This document shows, in pieces, positions 652 through 53,870 of a DNA stretch of 64,000 bases. Numbering within the stretch: the first letter of the stretch is position 1; each line of letters opens with the position of its first letter. The translations under genes were made by a program, and so were the position numbers. The notes beneath the pieces are model-generated. The model saw only the letters and a program-made list of their open reading frames with translations. It did not search any database and was not told the DNA's origin. The DNA is from Escherichia coli (GTDB lineage: Bacteria > Pseudomonadota > Gammaproteobacteria > Enterobacterales > Enterobacteriaceae): the NCBI RefSeq assembly GCF_041886205.1, contig NZ_CP169029.1. One strand, given 5' to 3'.

Positions 652-2198
652 TGTCAGAACCACGTCTGGGTAATCTGATTACCGTTTTACTACCTGCGCG
701 TAGTTACAAGATCAACTGCGCTTTGACCACTGAAAAACTGATGCCTGGAATTGAACAGTTTGCATGTCGCTTGCTGCTGATTTTTGATCAACTCTATCCC
801 AGCGAGTTACAGAATTACTTTGGTCTAACTGATCGTGAGCGAGAGGTATTGCTTGATGGGTTGCTGGCTAACAGACTGATCAACATTAATCCTGATGGGC
901 ATATTGAGGCTAGCTCATTCCTACGTAAGCATGCAGCTAATAATGGTGGGAAGCCAAGTTTAGTTAAATATCAAGAATGTACGGAGGAAGTTGCATTCGA
1001 TCTACTAACTCTTTCGATATGTAAACCGCAACCAAATCGTCGTTTTACTTCTGGACTGCCAGAGCTATTGCCGCGGCATCAGATCGGGGGAGATGCTGCT
1101 GCGGTAACAGAGGCTTTTAGTTCCCAGTTTAGGCACCATCTTTTGCTCAGCCGCAACAGCGAGTATGAGCGTCAACGGACTAAATTATATAAGATAATGG
1201 GCTGTAGTTCGCATGAGATGGTGCAGCTCCCAATAGAGATAGAGGTTAGCTACGGTGTTTCTGCTGGGAGCATTGAGCCGCAGAAATTTACTCGTTCCTA
1301 TGAATATTTAGGTAACACCCGGCTGCCGCTTTCAAACGAGCTGGAAGCTCATATCGCAGATTTTTTGGGAGAACATAAACTAGATGAATTCGGTATCGAC
1401 TGTGAAGATTTCTGTAAACTAGCAAATGATAAAGTGTTGTTACAATTTGCTAATGGTTATAAGTTCAACTATTCCGGCTGGATAGAGGCTCGTGAACAAC
1501 GTAAAACTGGCTACGGTACTTCATTGACTACCGGCATGTTAGGGGCTGTTTATTTGCCGCACAATTCTAAGCTGTTCATTAGTATGTTGCATAATGCATT
1601 ACGTGATTATATAGGTAAAACAGCTCCAAAAGCGCTGTGGTATAGCAGTAAAGTACCACTGTGGGGAGCTAATGGTAGTCAACTTTCGCGTTTTACTCGC
1701 GCTCTAGGCGATATACTTGGCAATTATGCCGATGATAAGATTGCTCGCATTTCGCTTTTACACTCAAGTGCAGATGAAGGTGAAAAACGTCAAGAGCGTA
1801 AGCGGCACTTAGGTCGTTTTCCTACCGGTATTGGCCTTACTTCAGAGGCTAAATTTGATCGTTTGGAGATCCTCTTAATTCCTGATGTGATTGCTTTGGT
1901 GCAATACCACGGTCAACCTAATTCTGATAGTGCATTAACCCTGCCGATTGGTTATATAACTGTTGAGCCAGAGCGTTTAGAATTACTTAAAAAACTAATG
2001 ATTAAGCGAACTGAAGGGGCTGTTGCAACCATTACTTGGTCTGAATCAAAATTTGAAAATTTAGCTTCGCTATTACCTGTTGAGTTTCTGATTAAACTGA
2101 ATAAGAAAAGCGGTGAAGATGTGGATGCTGCAATAAAAAAAATGCAGATCTATAACCGTGCTGAAACCGCACGGGCAATTTTATCGCTACGCAAGTAG
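651..2198 (+). CDS. Hypothetical 515-aa protein, translationally coupled to the upstream helicase
   Basis: ATG at 651 overlaps the helicase stop (TAATG); GGAG 13 nt upstream. Long uninterrupted ORF with no catalytic motif I can recognise. Confidence 0.6.
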   Translation: MSEPRLGNLITVLLPARSYKINCALTTEKLMPGIEQFACRLLLIFDQLYPSELQNYFGLTDREREVLLDGLLANRLININPDGHIEASSFLRKHAANNGGKPSLVKYQECTEEVAFDLLTLSICKPQPNRRFTSGLPELLPRHQIGGDAAAVTEAFSSQFRHHLLLSRNSEYERQRTKLYKIMGCSSHEMVQLPIEIEVSYGVSAGSIEPQKFTRSYEYLGNTRLPLSNELEAHIADFLGEHKLDEFGIDCEDFCKLANDKVLLQFANGYKFNYSGWIEAREQRKTGYGTSLTTGMLGAVYLPHNSKLFISMLHNALRDYIGKTAPKALWYSSKVPLWGANGSQLSRFTRALGDILGNYADDKIARISLLHSSADEGEKRQERKRHLGRFPTGIGLTSEAKFDRLEILLIPDVIALVQYHGQPNSDSALTLPIGYITVEPERLELLKKLMIKRTEGAVATITWSESKFENLASLLPVEFLIKLNKKSGEDVDAAIKKMQIYNRAETARAILSLRK

Positions 2199-2412
2199 CA
2201 TTTATATTGCAACGAATAAATTTTTCTAGGTTGCTATGAACTAGCTAAAGGGCAACAAATAGATAAACGGCGTTATTCATGTCAAATGAGATAATGTTAA
2301 ATTGATAGGGATTTATACCCCGCCGGCCATTTTGAATGGTCGGAGTTGTTATAAACGTTAAACCGCCCCGGAAATCCTGGAGACTAAACTCCCTGAGAAA
2401 GAGGTAAACAGG

Positions 2413-2739
2413 ATGACTAAAAATACACGTTTTTCCCCCGAAGTCCGTCAACGGGCAGTTCGTATGGTTCTGGAAAGTCAGGGCGAATATGACTCACAAT
2501 GGACAGCAATTTGTTCTATTGCCCCTAAGATTGGCTGTACACCGGAGACTCTGCACGTCTGGGTACTCCAGCATGAGCAGGATATTGGGGGCGGTGATGG
2601 TGGTTTCACCACCACTGAACGTCAGCGTCTGAAAGAGCTGGAACGTGAAAATCGTGAACTGAGCCGCAGTAACGATATCCTTCGCCAGGCTTCCACTTAT
2701 TTTGCGAAGGCGGAGTTCGACCGCCCCTGGAAAAAATAA
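2413..2739 (+). CDS. IS3-family transposase OrfA (IS629 OrfA-like, 108 aa)
   Basis: Translation MTKNTRFSPEVRQRAVRMVLESQGEYDSQW...LKELERENRELSRSNDILRQAS matches IS629/IS1203 OrfA as I recall it. Confidence 0.75.
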   Translation: MTKNTRFSPEVRQRAVRMVLESQGEYDSQWTAICSIAPKIGCTPETLHVWVLQHEQDIGGGDGGFTTTERQRLKELERENRELSRSNDILRQASTYFAKAEFDRPWKK

Positions 2740-3118
2740 TGCCACTGCTGGATAAGTCGCGTGAGCAGTACGGGATCGGACCGGTATGCAGTGAACTGCA
2801 TATTGCCCCGTCAACGTATTACCACTGTCAGCAACAGCGACATCATCCTGATAAACGCAATGCCCGTGCGCAGCGTGATGACTGGCTGAAGAAAAAGATA
2901 CCGTGCGTATACGATGTGCGTAAAGTCTGGCGTCAGTTGTTTCGGGAAGGTATCAGAGTGGCCAGATGCACTGTGGCACGTCTCATGGCGGTTATGGGGC
3001 TTGTCGGTGTTCTCTGGGGTAAAAGGTCCGCACTACCGTCAGCCGGAAAGCCGTTGCCGTAGACGACCGCGTAAACCGCCAGTTCGGGGCAAAGTCGTGG
3101 GTGGCTGATTTTACTTAC
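2739..3118 (+). pseudogene. IS3-family transposase OrfB, truncated and frameshifted
   Basis: Begins MPLLDKSREQYGIGPVCSELHIAPSTYYHCQQQRHHPDK like IS629 OrfB, but is short of a few residues versus the recalled sequence, stops after 107 aa, and continues in another frame (RQFGAKSWVADFTY) before homology ends. Confidence 0.6.
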
Positions 3119-3690
3119 GGTGTGCCCGGAGTTCAGGGTGAGCACGGATGCTGAAATGAACCATGAGTCTGTCTGGAATATGGAACAGATAACTCATGAC
3201 GAGAAGCCCAACAATCCCACCGGGTGTGACTGTGGTGAACCTGAGCGACTGTGACCTGCGGCATTCCCTAAGGATGATGTAACCCGCTGACAACGGGGAT
3301 TGAGGCGAGATCACTAAGCCGAGATGATCCTCAAGGTTGAGTGCTGAAAGGCTGAAGAACATGAACCCGTTAATCCGCCTCTGTGGGCTGAAAACGTCAC
3401 CACGGCCTACATGATCTGACAGGTCGTGCAGAAGTAACTGTCTGCGACACGTATGCGCGGGTCAGTCAAAGGTGTTCTGACATGTATGCAAAACACCGGG
3501 ACAGCAACGCCTATCACGCTCACGTTGCTGACTTCTGTCAACTTGCGGCAAGCAAGGACAAAGAGTGCGACGGGCAGCCTCCTCAGTATGTATGAGTTCA
3601 GACAGGTGAACTGGGGAAGGTCAGCGACGGATGTTAAGGAGGCAGTAAGCGTCAACGGAGCACCGTATTGACGCTTATTTATTGGTGAGA
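3119..3690 (+). mobile_element. Candidate group II intron 5' fragment (domain I-like structured RNA) inserted in the IS OrfB remnant; no intron-encoded protein ORF
   Basis: Starts GTGTGCCCGGAG...GGGTGAGCACGG immediately after the IS OrfB FTY codons, resembling the GUGYG...GGGUG start of bacterial group II introns. GC-rich, non-coding in all frames. Group II introns are known to target IS elements in E. coli. Confidence 0.25.
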
Positions 3691-3698
3691 ACTACGTT

Positions 3699-3900
3699 TC
3701 ATGGCAGGAGTTCGTCAACACGGTTGGATAGTAATGCACGGCTCAGTTCGACACCCTGTCGGGCAAAGATTTCACTCTGACGATACAGTGGCAGGTGTTC
3801 GCAGTATTTTCCCGTTAACACGCGGGCAAGTAATCCGGGGCCGCGATACCACGCTCTATCGGGCAGGACGGCGCCAATGATAGCATTTATACAAGCAATT
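3699..3900 (-). pseudogene. IS66-family transposase (TnpC) internal fragment
   Basis: Minus-strand translation ...GLLARVLTGKYCEHLPLYRQSEIFARQGVELSR... matches the conserved HLPLYRQSxIxARQGV block of IS66 TnpC, then hits a stop. Far too short for an intact gene. Confidence 0.45.
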
Positions 3901-4227
3901 CTGGGAGCTTATAGATTGTGTGCAAAACTTTTGATAGCAGGAGGTTACAACAGTATTGATGAAAAAGATCATTCAAATCGATTTATATATTTTGTTAATG
4001 TTATCTGTTTTCAATCTAATAACCACGAATATAGCTAATTATAGGATGATTACTAGTTTTGCTACCCTATCAACCAAACGTTCACCGGACATTAGAAAAC
4101 ATGGAAATTTCTTGTTTTTAAATGCTTTTTACACCAATAGAAAAATTTACATTCCAAAATCATTAGTCTTTGCGTAATCAAAAGATGTAATGGTTTTTTT
4201 CCTTACTACTTCTAGATAATCCGCCCA

Positions 4228-4345
4228 CTACAGCAACATCAACTTACGCTCATCTAAATGCTCCGCCTTATGGATATAAGCTACCCGCACTGAATTACAT
4301 TCCATGCGGCTCATCAGACGTCCAGTTGCTTTACTGTCTTCAGGG
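4228..4345 (-). pseudogene. P4-type integrase 3'-terminal fragment (remnant of an older island)
   Basis: Minus-strand translation ...ATGRLMSRMECNSVRVAYIHKAEHLDERKLMLL* aligns with the C-terminus of the intact integrase at 11064..12326 (...AVERQMSHQERNGVRAAYIHKAEHLEERRLMLQ...). No upstream catalytic region. Confidence 0.5.
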
Positions 4346-4584
4346 GGATGCTCTTGTAATCCCAACCTCTCGTGCTTTCTGAGCATAACACATCCATGTT
4401 GCTGCGATTATCTCTTAAACCCGTCCTTACCATTTTTATTGATACGATAAGGAACCTTCATCATACATGATCGATTTTGTCGATCGATTCGATCGAATTT
4501 TCTCTTTTTACCCTGTCTTTTACATGGTTTTAAAATAAGCACCCCATTTATTGTTCGGGGAAAGTGATAGCAGAGGTAACTGAA

Positions 4585-5313
4585 ATGAAAAAGATTATTG
4601 CGGTTTCAGCACTTGCTGTGGCAGGCATGTTTTCAGCCCAGACCCTGGCTGATGAGAGCAAAACAGGCTTTTATATGACCGGTAAGGCGGGAACTTCCGT
4701 TTTATCTCTTTCCAACCAGCGTTTTGTCGAAGGTGAAGGAGAGTGGGCGGACAGATACAAAGGTGACGATGACCATGATACGGTATTCAGTGGCGGTATT
4801 GCGGCCGGTTATGATTTTTATCCGCAGTTCAGTATTCCGGTTCGTACAGAACTGGAGTTTTACGCTCGTGGAAATGCTGACACGAAATATAATCTTTATA
4901 AAGACGACTGGTCGCGTGGTGACCTGAAGAACGAGGTGTCAGTCAACACTCTGATGCTGAATGCGTACTATGACTTCCGGAATGACAGCTCATTCACACC
5001 ATGGGTATCTGCAGGGATTGGCTACGCCAGAATTCACCAGAAAACAACCGGTATCAGTACCTGGGATTACGGGTATGGATACAGTGGTCGTGAATCGTTG
5101 TCACGTTCAGGCTCTGCTGACAACTTCGCATGGAGCCTTGGCGCGGGTGTCCGCTATGACGTCACCCCGGATATCGCTCTGGACCTCAGCTATCGCTATC
5201 TTGATGCGGGTGACAGCAGTGTGAGTTACAAGGGCGAGTGGGGCGATAAATATAAATCAGAGGTTGATGTTAAAAGTCATGACATCCTGCTTGGTGTGAC
5301 TTATAACTTCTGA
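4585..5313 (+). CDS. Outer-membrane beta-barrel protein (OmpA-like/opacity-type family), 242 aa
   Basis: Signal peptide MKKIIAVSALAVAGMFSAQTLA, alternating aromatic/hydrophilic beta-strand pattern, C-terminal ...LLGVTYNF ending in Phe. The ORF-track start at 4564 is probably an upstream extension. Confidence 0.7.
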   Translation: MKKIIAVSALAVAGMFSAQTLADESKTGFYMTGKAGTSVLSLSNQRFVEGEGEWADRYKGDDDHDTVFSGGIAAGYDFYPQFSIPVRTELEFYARGNADTKYNLYKDDWSRGDLKNEVSVNTLMLNAYYDFRNDSSFTPWVSAGIGYARIHQKTTGISTWDYGYGYSGRESLSRSGSADNFAWSLGAGVRYDVTPDIALDLSYRYLDAGDSSVSYKGEWGDKYKSEVDVKSHDILLGVTYNF

Positions 5314-5390
5314 CGACACTGCTTCTGAATGATAATTGCGCATATTTCTGCAATTAAGATAATTACGTATTTCTGTAATTAAAAAGGAAC

Positions 5391-5435
5391 ACCCTGCAGT
5401 AATATTATACTGCAGGGTTGTCTGTTATCTGCTTT
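5391..5435 (+). terminator. Putative rho-independent terminator after the outer-membrane protein gene
   Basis: Perfect 11-bp inverted repeat accctgcagta/tactgcagggt followed by a T-rich tract. Confidence 0.4.
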
Positions 5436-5488
5436 ACAGGATATTTCTGATTTTTATTATCTTATTCTCTTTATATTAAGATATTTCG

Positions 5489-6988
5489 ATGAGTATCATA
5501 AAACTATTTTTTCCGGACAATACATCCCGAATTTTATTGTTTTTATTCTTTTTTGTTGTTTCTGTCATAACCACAATTGCATGCGGATACACTGAGAAGA
5601 ATACCACCGGGAATGTGTTGCTGCTGTTCTTTCTTCTGCTTCTTGCACACAGAAATACCCTCACATCCATTACAGCGCTGTTATTTCTGTTCTGTTGTGC
5701 ACTGTATGCGCCTGCCGGTATGACGTACGGTAAAATCAACAACAGTTTTATTGTCGCGTTGTTGCAGACCACGGCTGATGAGGCAGCGGAGTTTACCGGG
5801 ATGATTCCTGTTTATCATTTTCTGGTCAGTGCCGCGATTCTGGTATTCATGGTGATTTTCTGGCGAACACACCACCGCGGTCACCGTAACTGGCTGGCAC
5901 TGCTGCTATTCGTATTATGCTCTGTAAACAGCTGGCCGTTGCGGATGGTTAAAGGAACCGTTGTGGGGACAACTGACACATTGCGTGAAATGCAGCGTTA
6001 TAAACAACTGAGTCAGCACGGGGCTGACAGCTGGAAAATCCTGCCGGGTGTACCGTTGTATGACACGATTGTTATTGTTACTGGTGAGAGTGTGCGCAGG
6101 GATTATATGTCGGTATATGGCTATCCCGTGCCAACCACACCGTGGCTGAATACTGCTCCCGGTTTATTTATTGACGGCTATACATCGGCAGCAGCCAGTA
6201 CCGTACCTTCCCTGAGCCGGACACTGATTTATGACTATGAGCAGAACCCTGATTCCGGCAACAACGTGGTGGCGCTGGCAGCAAAATCAGGATACAGCAC
6301 ATGGTGGATATCCAATCAGGGAAAACTGGGAGAGCATGACACACGCATCTCTGTTATTGCTTCTGATGCGGAGCATACCGTTTTCCTCAAGAAAGGCAGC
6401 TTCGCTTCCCGTAAAACGGATGATATGTTGTTGTTACAGGAAACAGAACGTGCGCTGGCGGATACATCCTCTCCGAAGGTGATTTTCCTGCACATGATTG
6501 GCTCTCATCCGAATCCGTGTGACCGACTTAACTCCTGGCCGAATCATTACCTGGAGCAGTATCCCCGAAAGATTGCCTGTTACCTCGCCAGCATCAGTAA
6601 ACTGGATAACTTTCTCGGTCAGCTTGATGGTATCCTTCGCCGGCATTCCCGTCATTTCGCCATGCTTTACTTTTCTGACCATGGACTGTCGGTCAGCGAC
6701 AGCGCTAATCCTGTTCATCATGATGGTCATGTGCAGGGAGGCTACAGCGTTCCCCTGATTATTACCGCCAGTGACATCACGTCTCATCAGTCCGTCAGCA
6801 GAAAAATCAGTGCCCGTCATTTCGCAGGTATTTTTCAGTGGCTGACCGGCATTCGTACTGAAAATATACCGCCATTCAATCCGCTGACAGACGAAGATAA
6901 TGAACCCGTTATGGTTTTTAACGGGGAGAGGAATGTACCGGCAGACAGTCTGAAACCGCAGCCTCTGATTCTTCCGGACAGAAGATAA
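5489..6988 (+). CDS. Sulfatase-family phosphoethanolamine transferase-like inner-membrane protein (EptA/YhbX-like), 499 aa
   Basis: N-terminal multi-span hydrophobic region followed by a soluble domain with sulfatase-like signatures (IVTGESVRRDY, HMIGSHPNPCDRL). Exact start codon uncertain. Confidence 0.65.
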   Translation: MSIIKLFFPDNTSRILLFLFFFVVSVITTIACGYTEKNTTGNVLLLFFLLLLAHRNTLTSITALLFLFCCALYAPAGMTYGKINNSFIVALLQTTADEAAEFTGMIPVYHFLVSAAILVFMVIFWRTHHRGHRNWLALLLFVLCSVNSWPLRMVKGTVVGTTDTLREMQRYKQLSQHGADSWKILPGVPLYDTIVIVTGESVRRDYMSVYGYPVPTTPWLNTAPGLFIDGYTSAAASTVPSLSRTLIYDYEQNPDSGNNVVALAAKSGYSTWWISNQGKLGEHDTRISVIASDAEHTVFLKKGSFASRKTDDMLLLQETERALADTSSPKVIFLHMIGSHPNPCDRLNSWPNHYLEQYPRKIACYLASISKLDNFLGQLDGILRRHSRHFAMLYFSDHGLSVSDSANPVHHDGHVQGGYSVPLIITASDITSHQSVSRKISARHFAGIFQWLTGIRTENIPPFNPLTDEDNEPVMVFNGERNVPADSLKPQPLILPDRR

Positions 6989-12523: not shown

Positions 12524-12599
12524 TGGTGCCCGGACTCGGAATCGAACCAAGGACACGGGGATTTTCAATCCCCTGCTCTACCGACTGAGCTATCCGGGC
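12524..12599 (-). tRNA. pheV: tRNA-Phe (pheV locus by synteny with yqgA-speC)
   Basis: Reverse complement reads GCCCGGATAGCTCAGTCGGTAGAGCAGGGGATTGAAAATCCCCGTGTCCTTGGTTCGATTCCGAGTCCGGGCACCA, the E. coli tRNA-Phe sequence including CCA. Confidence 0.95.
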
Positions 12600-24424: not shown

Positions 24425-24648
24425 GATTTGTAGCAGGATGCGGCGTTGACCCCGCATCCGGCAATCAACGTCTGATGCGACGCTTGCGCGTCTTATCAGA
24501 CCTACAACCGCTGCCACATGTCGGCTGAGGCGCTCACGCCGCATCCGACAATCAACGTCTGATGCGATGCTTGCGCGTCTTATCAGACCTACAAACGTTG
24601 CCACATGTAGGCTGGATAAGGCGTTCACGCCGCATCCGGCAATACAAG
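24425..24648. repeat. BIME cluster: tandem REP elements between yggM and hemW
   Basis: Three copies of gccgcatccggcaa / gtctgatgcga(c/t)gcttgcgcgtcttatcagacctacaa palindromic units. Confidence 0.75.
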
Positions 24649-53756: not shown

Positions 53757-53870
53757 CAAAATTGCCTGATGCGCTACGCTTATCAGGCCTACACGTATCC
53801 TGCAATATATTGAATTTGCAGGTTTTTGTAGGCCGGATAAGGCGTTCACGCCGCATCCGGCATGACAAAG
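53757..53870. repeat. REP elements
   Basis: gcctgatgcgctacgcttatcaggcctac and ggccggataaggcgttcacgccgcatccggca palindromic units. Confidence 0.7.

Follow-up and report, generated by a model that had tools for sequence, protein, structure and literature searches.

A truncated group II intron of the E.c.I4 family in an IS3-family transposase gene beside Mokosh defense genes of Escherichia coli

The stretch of DNA considered here (the window) comprises 64,000 nucleotides of an Escherichia coli genome (contig NZ_CP169029.1 of RefSeq assembly GCF_041886205.1). It opens with two genes on the + strand that together make up a type I Mokosh anti-phage defense system and lie directly upstream of the insertion sequence (IS) and intron remnants described below. 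The first of these (1-648) codes for the C-terminal part of MkoA (PADLOC E = 1.6e-67; Pfam AAA_12) and is labeled an 'AAA domain-containing protein' in RefSeq, while the second (651-2198) codes for MkoB (PADLOC E = 1.1e-61), a RefSeq 'hypothetical protein' with no Pfam match. Just downstream of the remnants is an intact gene for an outer-membrane beta-barrel protein (4585-5313, + strand; Pfam OMP_b-brl), followed by a phosphoethanolamine-transferase-like gene (5489-6988, + strand) whose product displays a Sulfatase domain and a sub-threshold match to EptA_B_N (22.0 bits versus a cut-off of 22.3). The orthologous locus of ZYB39 is 99.95% identical to the window over positions 2300-4300, and its outer-membrane protein gene is interrupted by IS100, which shows that the window derives from another strain. 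A tRNA-Phe (GAA) gene is found at 12524-12599 (- strand), and an integrase pseudogene is annotated in the ZYB39 locus at about window positions 4147-4329 (- strand). Taken together, these two features suggest that a genomic island associated with tRNA-Phe ends in the window and accounts for its first ~12.5 kb. Farther along, Rfam detects at the gathering level two tandem copies of the naRNA4 (CssrE) RNA at 24432-24589 (+ strand) and a single ES036 (CssrF) sRNA at 53785-53827 (- strand).

The region downstream of MkoB contains the 5' portion of an IS3-family insertion sequence (2361-3119, + strand), which shows ~90% identity to annotated IS3-like elements of the IS629/IS1203 family. Its first base is also where the alignment of the window to L001, an intron-bearing locus of strain AR_0013 discussed below, begins. 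The remnant retains orfA (2413-2739, + strand) and the ALIL frameshift pseudoknot (2694-2810, + strand; Rfam, 107 bits). The downstream orfB is frameshifted and is described in the annotation of the orthologous locus as a 'transposase, frameshifted, missing C-terminus'. Its homology to IS3-family orfB genes breaks off exactly at 3119/3120, where the translated product ends in ...WVADFTY plus one base (G3119). The first-pass annotation of this DNA, made from the sequence alone, had the homology stop right after the FTY codons, which is correct but for this one further base. IS911 was considered as the host element and rejected, as the ~90% identity and the protein sequences identify an IS629/IS1203-like element.

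The transposase gene gives way to a 525-nt block (3120-3644, + strand) that represents the 5' end of a group II intron. The intron is of bacterial class A and belongs to the E.c.I4 family, and the block takes in its domain I together with the 5' part of domain II. The sequence across the junction reads ...TGG GTG GCT GAT TTT ACT TAC G/GTGTGCCCGGAGTTCAGGGTGAGCACGG, where the slash denotes 3119/3120, and places the fragment in the sense orientation within orfB, one base past the W-V-A-D-F-T-Y codons. Related copies have dissimilar 5' exons right up to the base preceding GTGTG and become alignable at GTGTG itself, which puts the first base of the intron at 3120 and leaves G3119 as the final base of the exon. 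The intron-like start proposed in the first-pass annotation thus corresponds to a 5' splice-site consensus GUGUG (GUGYG) at 3120-3124 (+ strand), which occupies the same position in copies with differing 5' exons. Homology to all intron copies ends at 3644. Hence, the block originally delimited as 3119-3690 is real but has to be redrawn: it starts one base later and ends at 3644, with the final 46 nt (3645-3690) being the terminus of an IS66-family element.

The longest open reading frames in the block are only 83, 82 and 72 amino acids long, in agreement with the earlier remark that it has no sustained reading frame, and none of its small open reading frames recovers a significant Pfam match. 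A hit to DUF5420 in one of these searches (E = 0.021) lies under the cut-off of that family and was taken as chance. The description of the block as GC-rich holds relative to its AT-rich flanks, namely the upstream genes (42%) and the region 3881-4560 (36%); it does not hold more generally, since the GC content of the fragment (53.1%) is close to that of the IS remnant (52.6%) and of the window as a whole (50.3%). These 525 nt carry no RefSeq/PGAP annotation in any of the genomes inspected.

The 3' boundary of the fragment is set by an IS66-family element. The sequence that starts at 3645 (GTAAGCGTCAACGGAGCACCGTATTGACGCTTA...) matches the ends of such elements at 98.8% identity, and the homology begins at the very same base beside unrelated flanks at two other loci, one next to the CP4-44 region (L004) and one next to an arginine repressor gene (L005). 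The terminal repeats of IS66-family elements begin with GTAAGCG. The terminal end seen here (3645-3728, - strand; GTAAGCGTCAACGG...) includes a hairpin formed by 3646-3655 and 3668-3677 and marks the point of intron truncation. It is accompanied by an internal fragment of tnpC (3702-3884, - strand; Pfam DDE_Tnp_IS66, E = 1.8e-12), which is 94-97% identical to the tnpC genes of ISEc23/ISEc47 and appears in the ZYB39 annotation as an IS66 pseudogene. As only positions 5-47 of the 284 in the Pfam profile remain, the IS66 element has itself been internally deleted. The orthologous locus of EcPF14 retains more of the IS66 element and no additional intron sequence. The intron/IS66 junction is common to at least 63 complete E. 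coli genomes (our count is about 63), which indicates an inherited scar in a genomic island rather than a recent event.

A megablast search with 3119-3690 as the query against 5,426 complete E. coli genomes yielded matches in 4,657 of them. The typical match is unannotated, shows ~90% identity and extends from query position 1 or 2 to 526. At the above-mentioned locus L001 of strain AR_0013, a truncated 'IS3 family transposase' is followed by the intron start, then by ltrA (annotated as 'group II intron reverse transcriptase/maturase') and finally by the rest of the IS3 transposase. In this full-length relative, ltrA encodes RVT_1 and GIIM domains without an accompanying endonuclease domain, and Rfam RF00029 (domain V/VI) matches positions 6185-6271 of the locus with 64.9 bits against a cut-off of 40. 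The full-length relatives measure 2270-2271 nt and have the same GUGUG start at the same site. Excision of positions 4002-6271 (2270 nt) from L001 restores the orfB frame of the IS without a stop (...LWVADFTYVSTWRGFVYVAF...), and the joined exons then form an open frame reading ...LWVADFTYVSTWRGFVYVAFIID....

E. coli and Shigella harbor E.c.I4, a group II intron of bacterial class A that is nearly identical to S.f.I1. Its class A assignment is listed along with the occurrence of its fragments in large mobile elements by Leclercq and Cordaux 2012 (PMC3522654), and it is likewise placed in class A, a class without the En domain, in PMC3552965. The length of the relatives found here agrees with that of the E.c.I4 copies tabulated in PMC3522654. 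As a reference, we used E.c.I4-2b of E24377A (2271 nt; NC_009801 4848623-4850893, coordinates from Table S3 of PMC3522654), which is 99.7% identical to L001. The window fragment is homologous to it over the whole of its 525 nt, being collinear with nt 1-524 at 89.5% identity. It further shares with E.c.I4 the 5' end GUGUGCCCGGAG, the homing position after the D-x-T-Y codons of an IS3-family orfB and the same predicted domain I helices. However, it comprises nt 1-525 only, is ~10.5% divergent in nucleotide sequence, and has CGUAUG as its candidate exon-binding site EBS1 where E.c.I4 has CGUAAG. As copies bearing the same intron name are required to share >90% nucleotide identity (PMC3522654), the 89.5% observed here falls just short, making the copy a borderline case that is not E.c.I4 proper. 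It resembles the catalogued copies E.c.I4-tr1 to tr4 in being a truncated member of the family within a large mobile element or island, a type of copy held to be inactive (PMC3522654). Nevertheless, those are other pieces at other loci, such as the 1764-bp E.c.I4-tr1 in the K-12 prophage CP4-6 (PMC3522654), and the 525-nt piece next to the Mokosh genes is not among the four.

The closest relatives of the window copy are three further copies in IS3-family orfB genes (L002, L012 and L013), with identities of 93.6-95.1%. L002, which occurs on ~80-kb E. coli plasmids, is 94-95% identical to the window fragment (94.4% in a pairwise alignment), and L012, from an E. coli chromosome, is 93.6% identical. 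Copies of this group are 86-89% identical to E.c.I4 and share with the window copy the variant UAUG in the EBS1 loop. Judged by these identities, the window copy belongs to a sister sub-lineage that is ~10% diverged from E.c.I4, rather than to E.c.I4 itself. The three relatives retain most of the intron and have suffered either a broken reverse transcriptase (RT) gene or a 40-nt 5' truncation, whereas the window copy is reduced to domain I and a stub of domain II. Specifically, L002 has a ~150-nt deletion and a frameshift, L012 is missing its initial 40 nt and is interrupted by a stop codon, and L013 combines a frameshift with an internal stop. No intact member of the sub-lineage was found among the copies inspected (L002, L012 and L013), and the sub-lineage is seemingly extinct.

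The position of the fragment within orfB recurs across the family. In six copies with different exons, the insertion lies one base past the D-x-T-Y codons of an IS3-family orfB, and all of these begin with GTGYG, except for the degenerate L008, which begins with GTATA. E.c.I4 is known to target specific positions of IS3-like transposases, namely those of IS629, IS911, ISEc16 and ISEc31 (PMC3522654), and the host of one of the copies recovered here (L006) is indeed an IS911 (WCGDVTY). Family relatives sitting one base after these codons in different IS3-family transposase genes include L002, L006, L008, L009 and L015. The last of these is on a plasmid of the alpha-proteobacterium Bradyrhizobium (NZ_CP049702.1, reverse strand position 987), where the junction reads …QVWAMDITY/GTGCG. 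In hosts as distant as these, the intron lineage thus seems to follow the codons that specify a conserved transposase motif.

We next consider the RNA structure, for which a consensus was predicted with RNAalifold from an alignment of seven sequences: the window fragment, L002, E.c.I4, and copies from Klebsiella and Salmonella (90.7% and 84.6% identical to E.c.I4, respectively), a Bradyrhizobium plasmid and a Mycetohabitans plasmid. The latter two are the distant relatives in the set (~67% and ~70% identity, respectively), and the alignment as a whole spans gamma-, beta- and alpha-proteobacterial representatives. The consensus contains 134 pairs in 23 helices. Changes on both sides are seen in 47 of the 134 pairs, as against 16.8 +/- 2.9 in shuffled alignments (none of 500 reaching 47) and 6-11 in slid controls, and 93.6% of the cells are paired, versus 85.5% in the shuffles and ~40% in the slid controls; as the structure was predicted from the same alignment that was used for counting, these numbers are somewhat inflated, though the margin is still large. 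Of the 117 pairs for which both partners are present in the window copy, 112 are formed. The minimum free energy of the fragment folded as a single sequence is not distinctive (z = -1.15). The short complementary stretches mentioned in the first-pass annotation are present and belong to this covariation-supported fold.

The RNA folding check proposed there for a domain I architecture yields a consensus in which domain I is complete and domain II is represented by its 5' strand. Domain I (3125-3615, + strand) is closed by helix 1, in which 3125-3129 (CCCGG) pairs with 3611-3615 (CUGGG) and two of the five pairs are compensatory. This helix encloses a large multi-branched domain and is separated by a three-base linker from the domain II portion (3619-3644, + strand), which consists of the 5' strand and part of the apex. 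The corresponding helix 21 (alignment columns 507-517 with 562-571) has compensatory changes at four of its nine pairs in the full-length relatives. Its 5' strand in the window is 3619-3629, and its 3' strand, which in full-length copies lies beyond the truncation point, is absent. On the 3' side of domain II, the full-length copies have another hairpin region, followed by the open reading frame at nt 672. An earlier fold based on five close sequences had domain I closed by nt 3-8 with 520-525 and also had CGCUGAC paired with GUCAGCG. It was displaced once the Bradyrhizobium and Mycetohabitans sequences were added, which favored the closing helix 3125-3129/3611-3615 and assigned GGUCAGCG to domain II as its 5' strand.

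Within domain I, helix 17 forms a hairpin (3438-3465, + strand; three of six stem pairs compensatory) whose terminal loop carries the candidate EBS1. Read by eye, this CGUAUG (3450-3455) can pair at five of six positions with the exon end CUUACG (3114-3119). The E.c.I4 loop CGUAAG, likewise read by eye, is a perfect 6-nt complement of CUUACG, and the loops of the distant relatives pair at 3-5 of six positions. We accordingly regard the loop at 3450-3455 as a candidate EBS1. Two candidates for EBS2, AAAA in a loop at ~3390 and AAUAUK at ~3177, were set aside, as neither covaried convincingly with the exons.

These observations bear on the possibility, also raised in the first-pass annotation, that the segment simply belongs to another insertion sequence or is a protein-coding gene in decay. 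Such an origin would be in keeping with the IS graveyard in which the segment lies, and the final 46 nt of the originally delimited block (3645-3690) do belong to an IS66-family end. For 3120-3644, however, it is refuted by an alignment running end to end with the non-coding 5' part of elements endowed with a group II RT/maturase and domains V/VI, and by substitutions in the relatives that are compensatory in RNA helices. With the lack of any reading frame above 83 amino acids or significant Pfam match pointing the same way, we consider its probability negligible.

A search with Rfam covariance models had likewise been suggested as a check. At E <= 10, it returns no group II intron match in positions 2000-5000 of the window, where it finds only the IS3 ALIL pseudoknot and chance matches. 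The same search on the intact E.c.I4-type intron of L001 detects domain V/VI and nothing over domains I-IV, implying that the Rfam models for domains D1-D4 do not cover class A. As Rfam is blind to these domains even in an intact intron, the missing match in the fragment is not a valid refutation of its being an intron.

The remainder of the intron was sought throughout the 64-kb window. A tblastn search with the E.c.I4 RT gives nothing below E = 9, bearing out the earlier statement that no intron-encoded RT is present, and blastn searches with two full introns recover no other intron pieces. Domains III-VI and a 3' exon are absent from the window, and the rest of the intron was not found in the orthologous loci L003 and L014 either. 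In group II introns, catalysis requires domain V and mobility requires the RT/maturase. Having neither the RT nor domains V and VI, the fragment is predicted to be unable to splice or retrohome.

Alternatively, the fragment might be part of a split intron that splices in trans with a second half encoded elsewhere in the genome. Nothing specific speaks for this, other than the presence of further E.c.I4-family sequences in most E. coli genomes. Against it, neither a 3' half nor a 3' exon is found in the window, the host gene is a pseudogene, and the break falls inside domain II at the terminus of an IS66 element, whereas natural splits of group II introns are usually in domain IV (PMC4424553, a review). 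We hold this to be extremely improbable.

Another scenario is that the domain I fragment has been kept as a functional stand-alone RNA, serving either as a scaffold complemented in trans by domains V/VI of a resident E.c.I4 or as a decoy for the RT or the target. The nearly intact domain I, with its 112 of 117 pairs, and the presence of the same truncated locus in the at least 63 complete E. coli genomes noted above could be read in its favor, as could the ability of split group II introns to function in trans (PMC4424553). However, the truncation point was set by the IS66 insertion, there is no 3' exon, the orfB of the host IS is frameshifted, and no promoter-like site is found near the fragment on the + strand. 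Moreover, relative to the orthologous EcPF14 locus, the fragment has diverged by 3.0%, faster than the neighboring genes for MkoA (0.2%) and MkoB (0.8%); the corresponding values for the IS remnant and the intergenic DNA are 1.8% and 3.7%. This divergence fits a fragment that is decaying neutrally. Retention as a functional RNA is hence very unlikely, and we infer that the fragment is non-functional. We would give similarly small odds to a more speculative proposal, in which the stub is not inert and acts in trans as an EBS-bearing scaffold or decoy for E.c.I4 ribonucleoproteins or IS3-family transcripts, or to its broader version, in which class A introns are specialist parasites of the codons for the D-x-T-Y catalytic motif of IS3 elements from alpha- to gamma-proteobacteria.

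Thus, the segment 3120-3644 very probably represents a dead E.c.I4-family intron, a once mobile group II element of class A of which only the 5' end remains. The first-pass annotation suggested a group II intron that had homed into an IS and survives as a 5' fragment, and this is borne out by the homology of the segment to full-length introns and by its fold. The events leading to the present arrangement may be reconstructed as follows. An intron ribonucleoprotein would first have reverse-spliced into the sense strand of the orfB of an IS629-like element, one base after the D-F-T-Y codons, with the candidate EBS1 loop (3450-3455) base-pairing with the exon end CUUACG, and the inserted RNA would then have been copied into DNA (retrohoming). 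An IS66-family element would later have inserted at intron nt 525/526, within domain II. Finally, most of the IS66 element was probably lost through deletions, which would also have taken away what was left of the intron beyond the insertion point (its RT gene, domains III-VI and the 3' half of domain II) as well as the 3' part of the IS629-like element.

In kind, this object is already known: the intron family, of which it is a truncated copy, and the homing site that it occupies have both been described. Its biological weight is accordingly small, as the preference of these introns for IS3-family transposases and their decay into fragments in islands and plasmids have already been documented. 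What is mildly new is its membership in the sister sub-lineage and the fact that domain I stubs of this kind go unflagged by both annotation pipelines and Rfam. In the latter case, the reason is that Rfam is without a domain I-IV model that detects class A, so that a screen with covariance models misses these introns. As for the intron family itself, all four examined members of the sub-lineage are defective, which fits the published picture of the 'extinction' of these introns.
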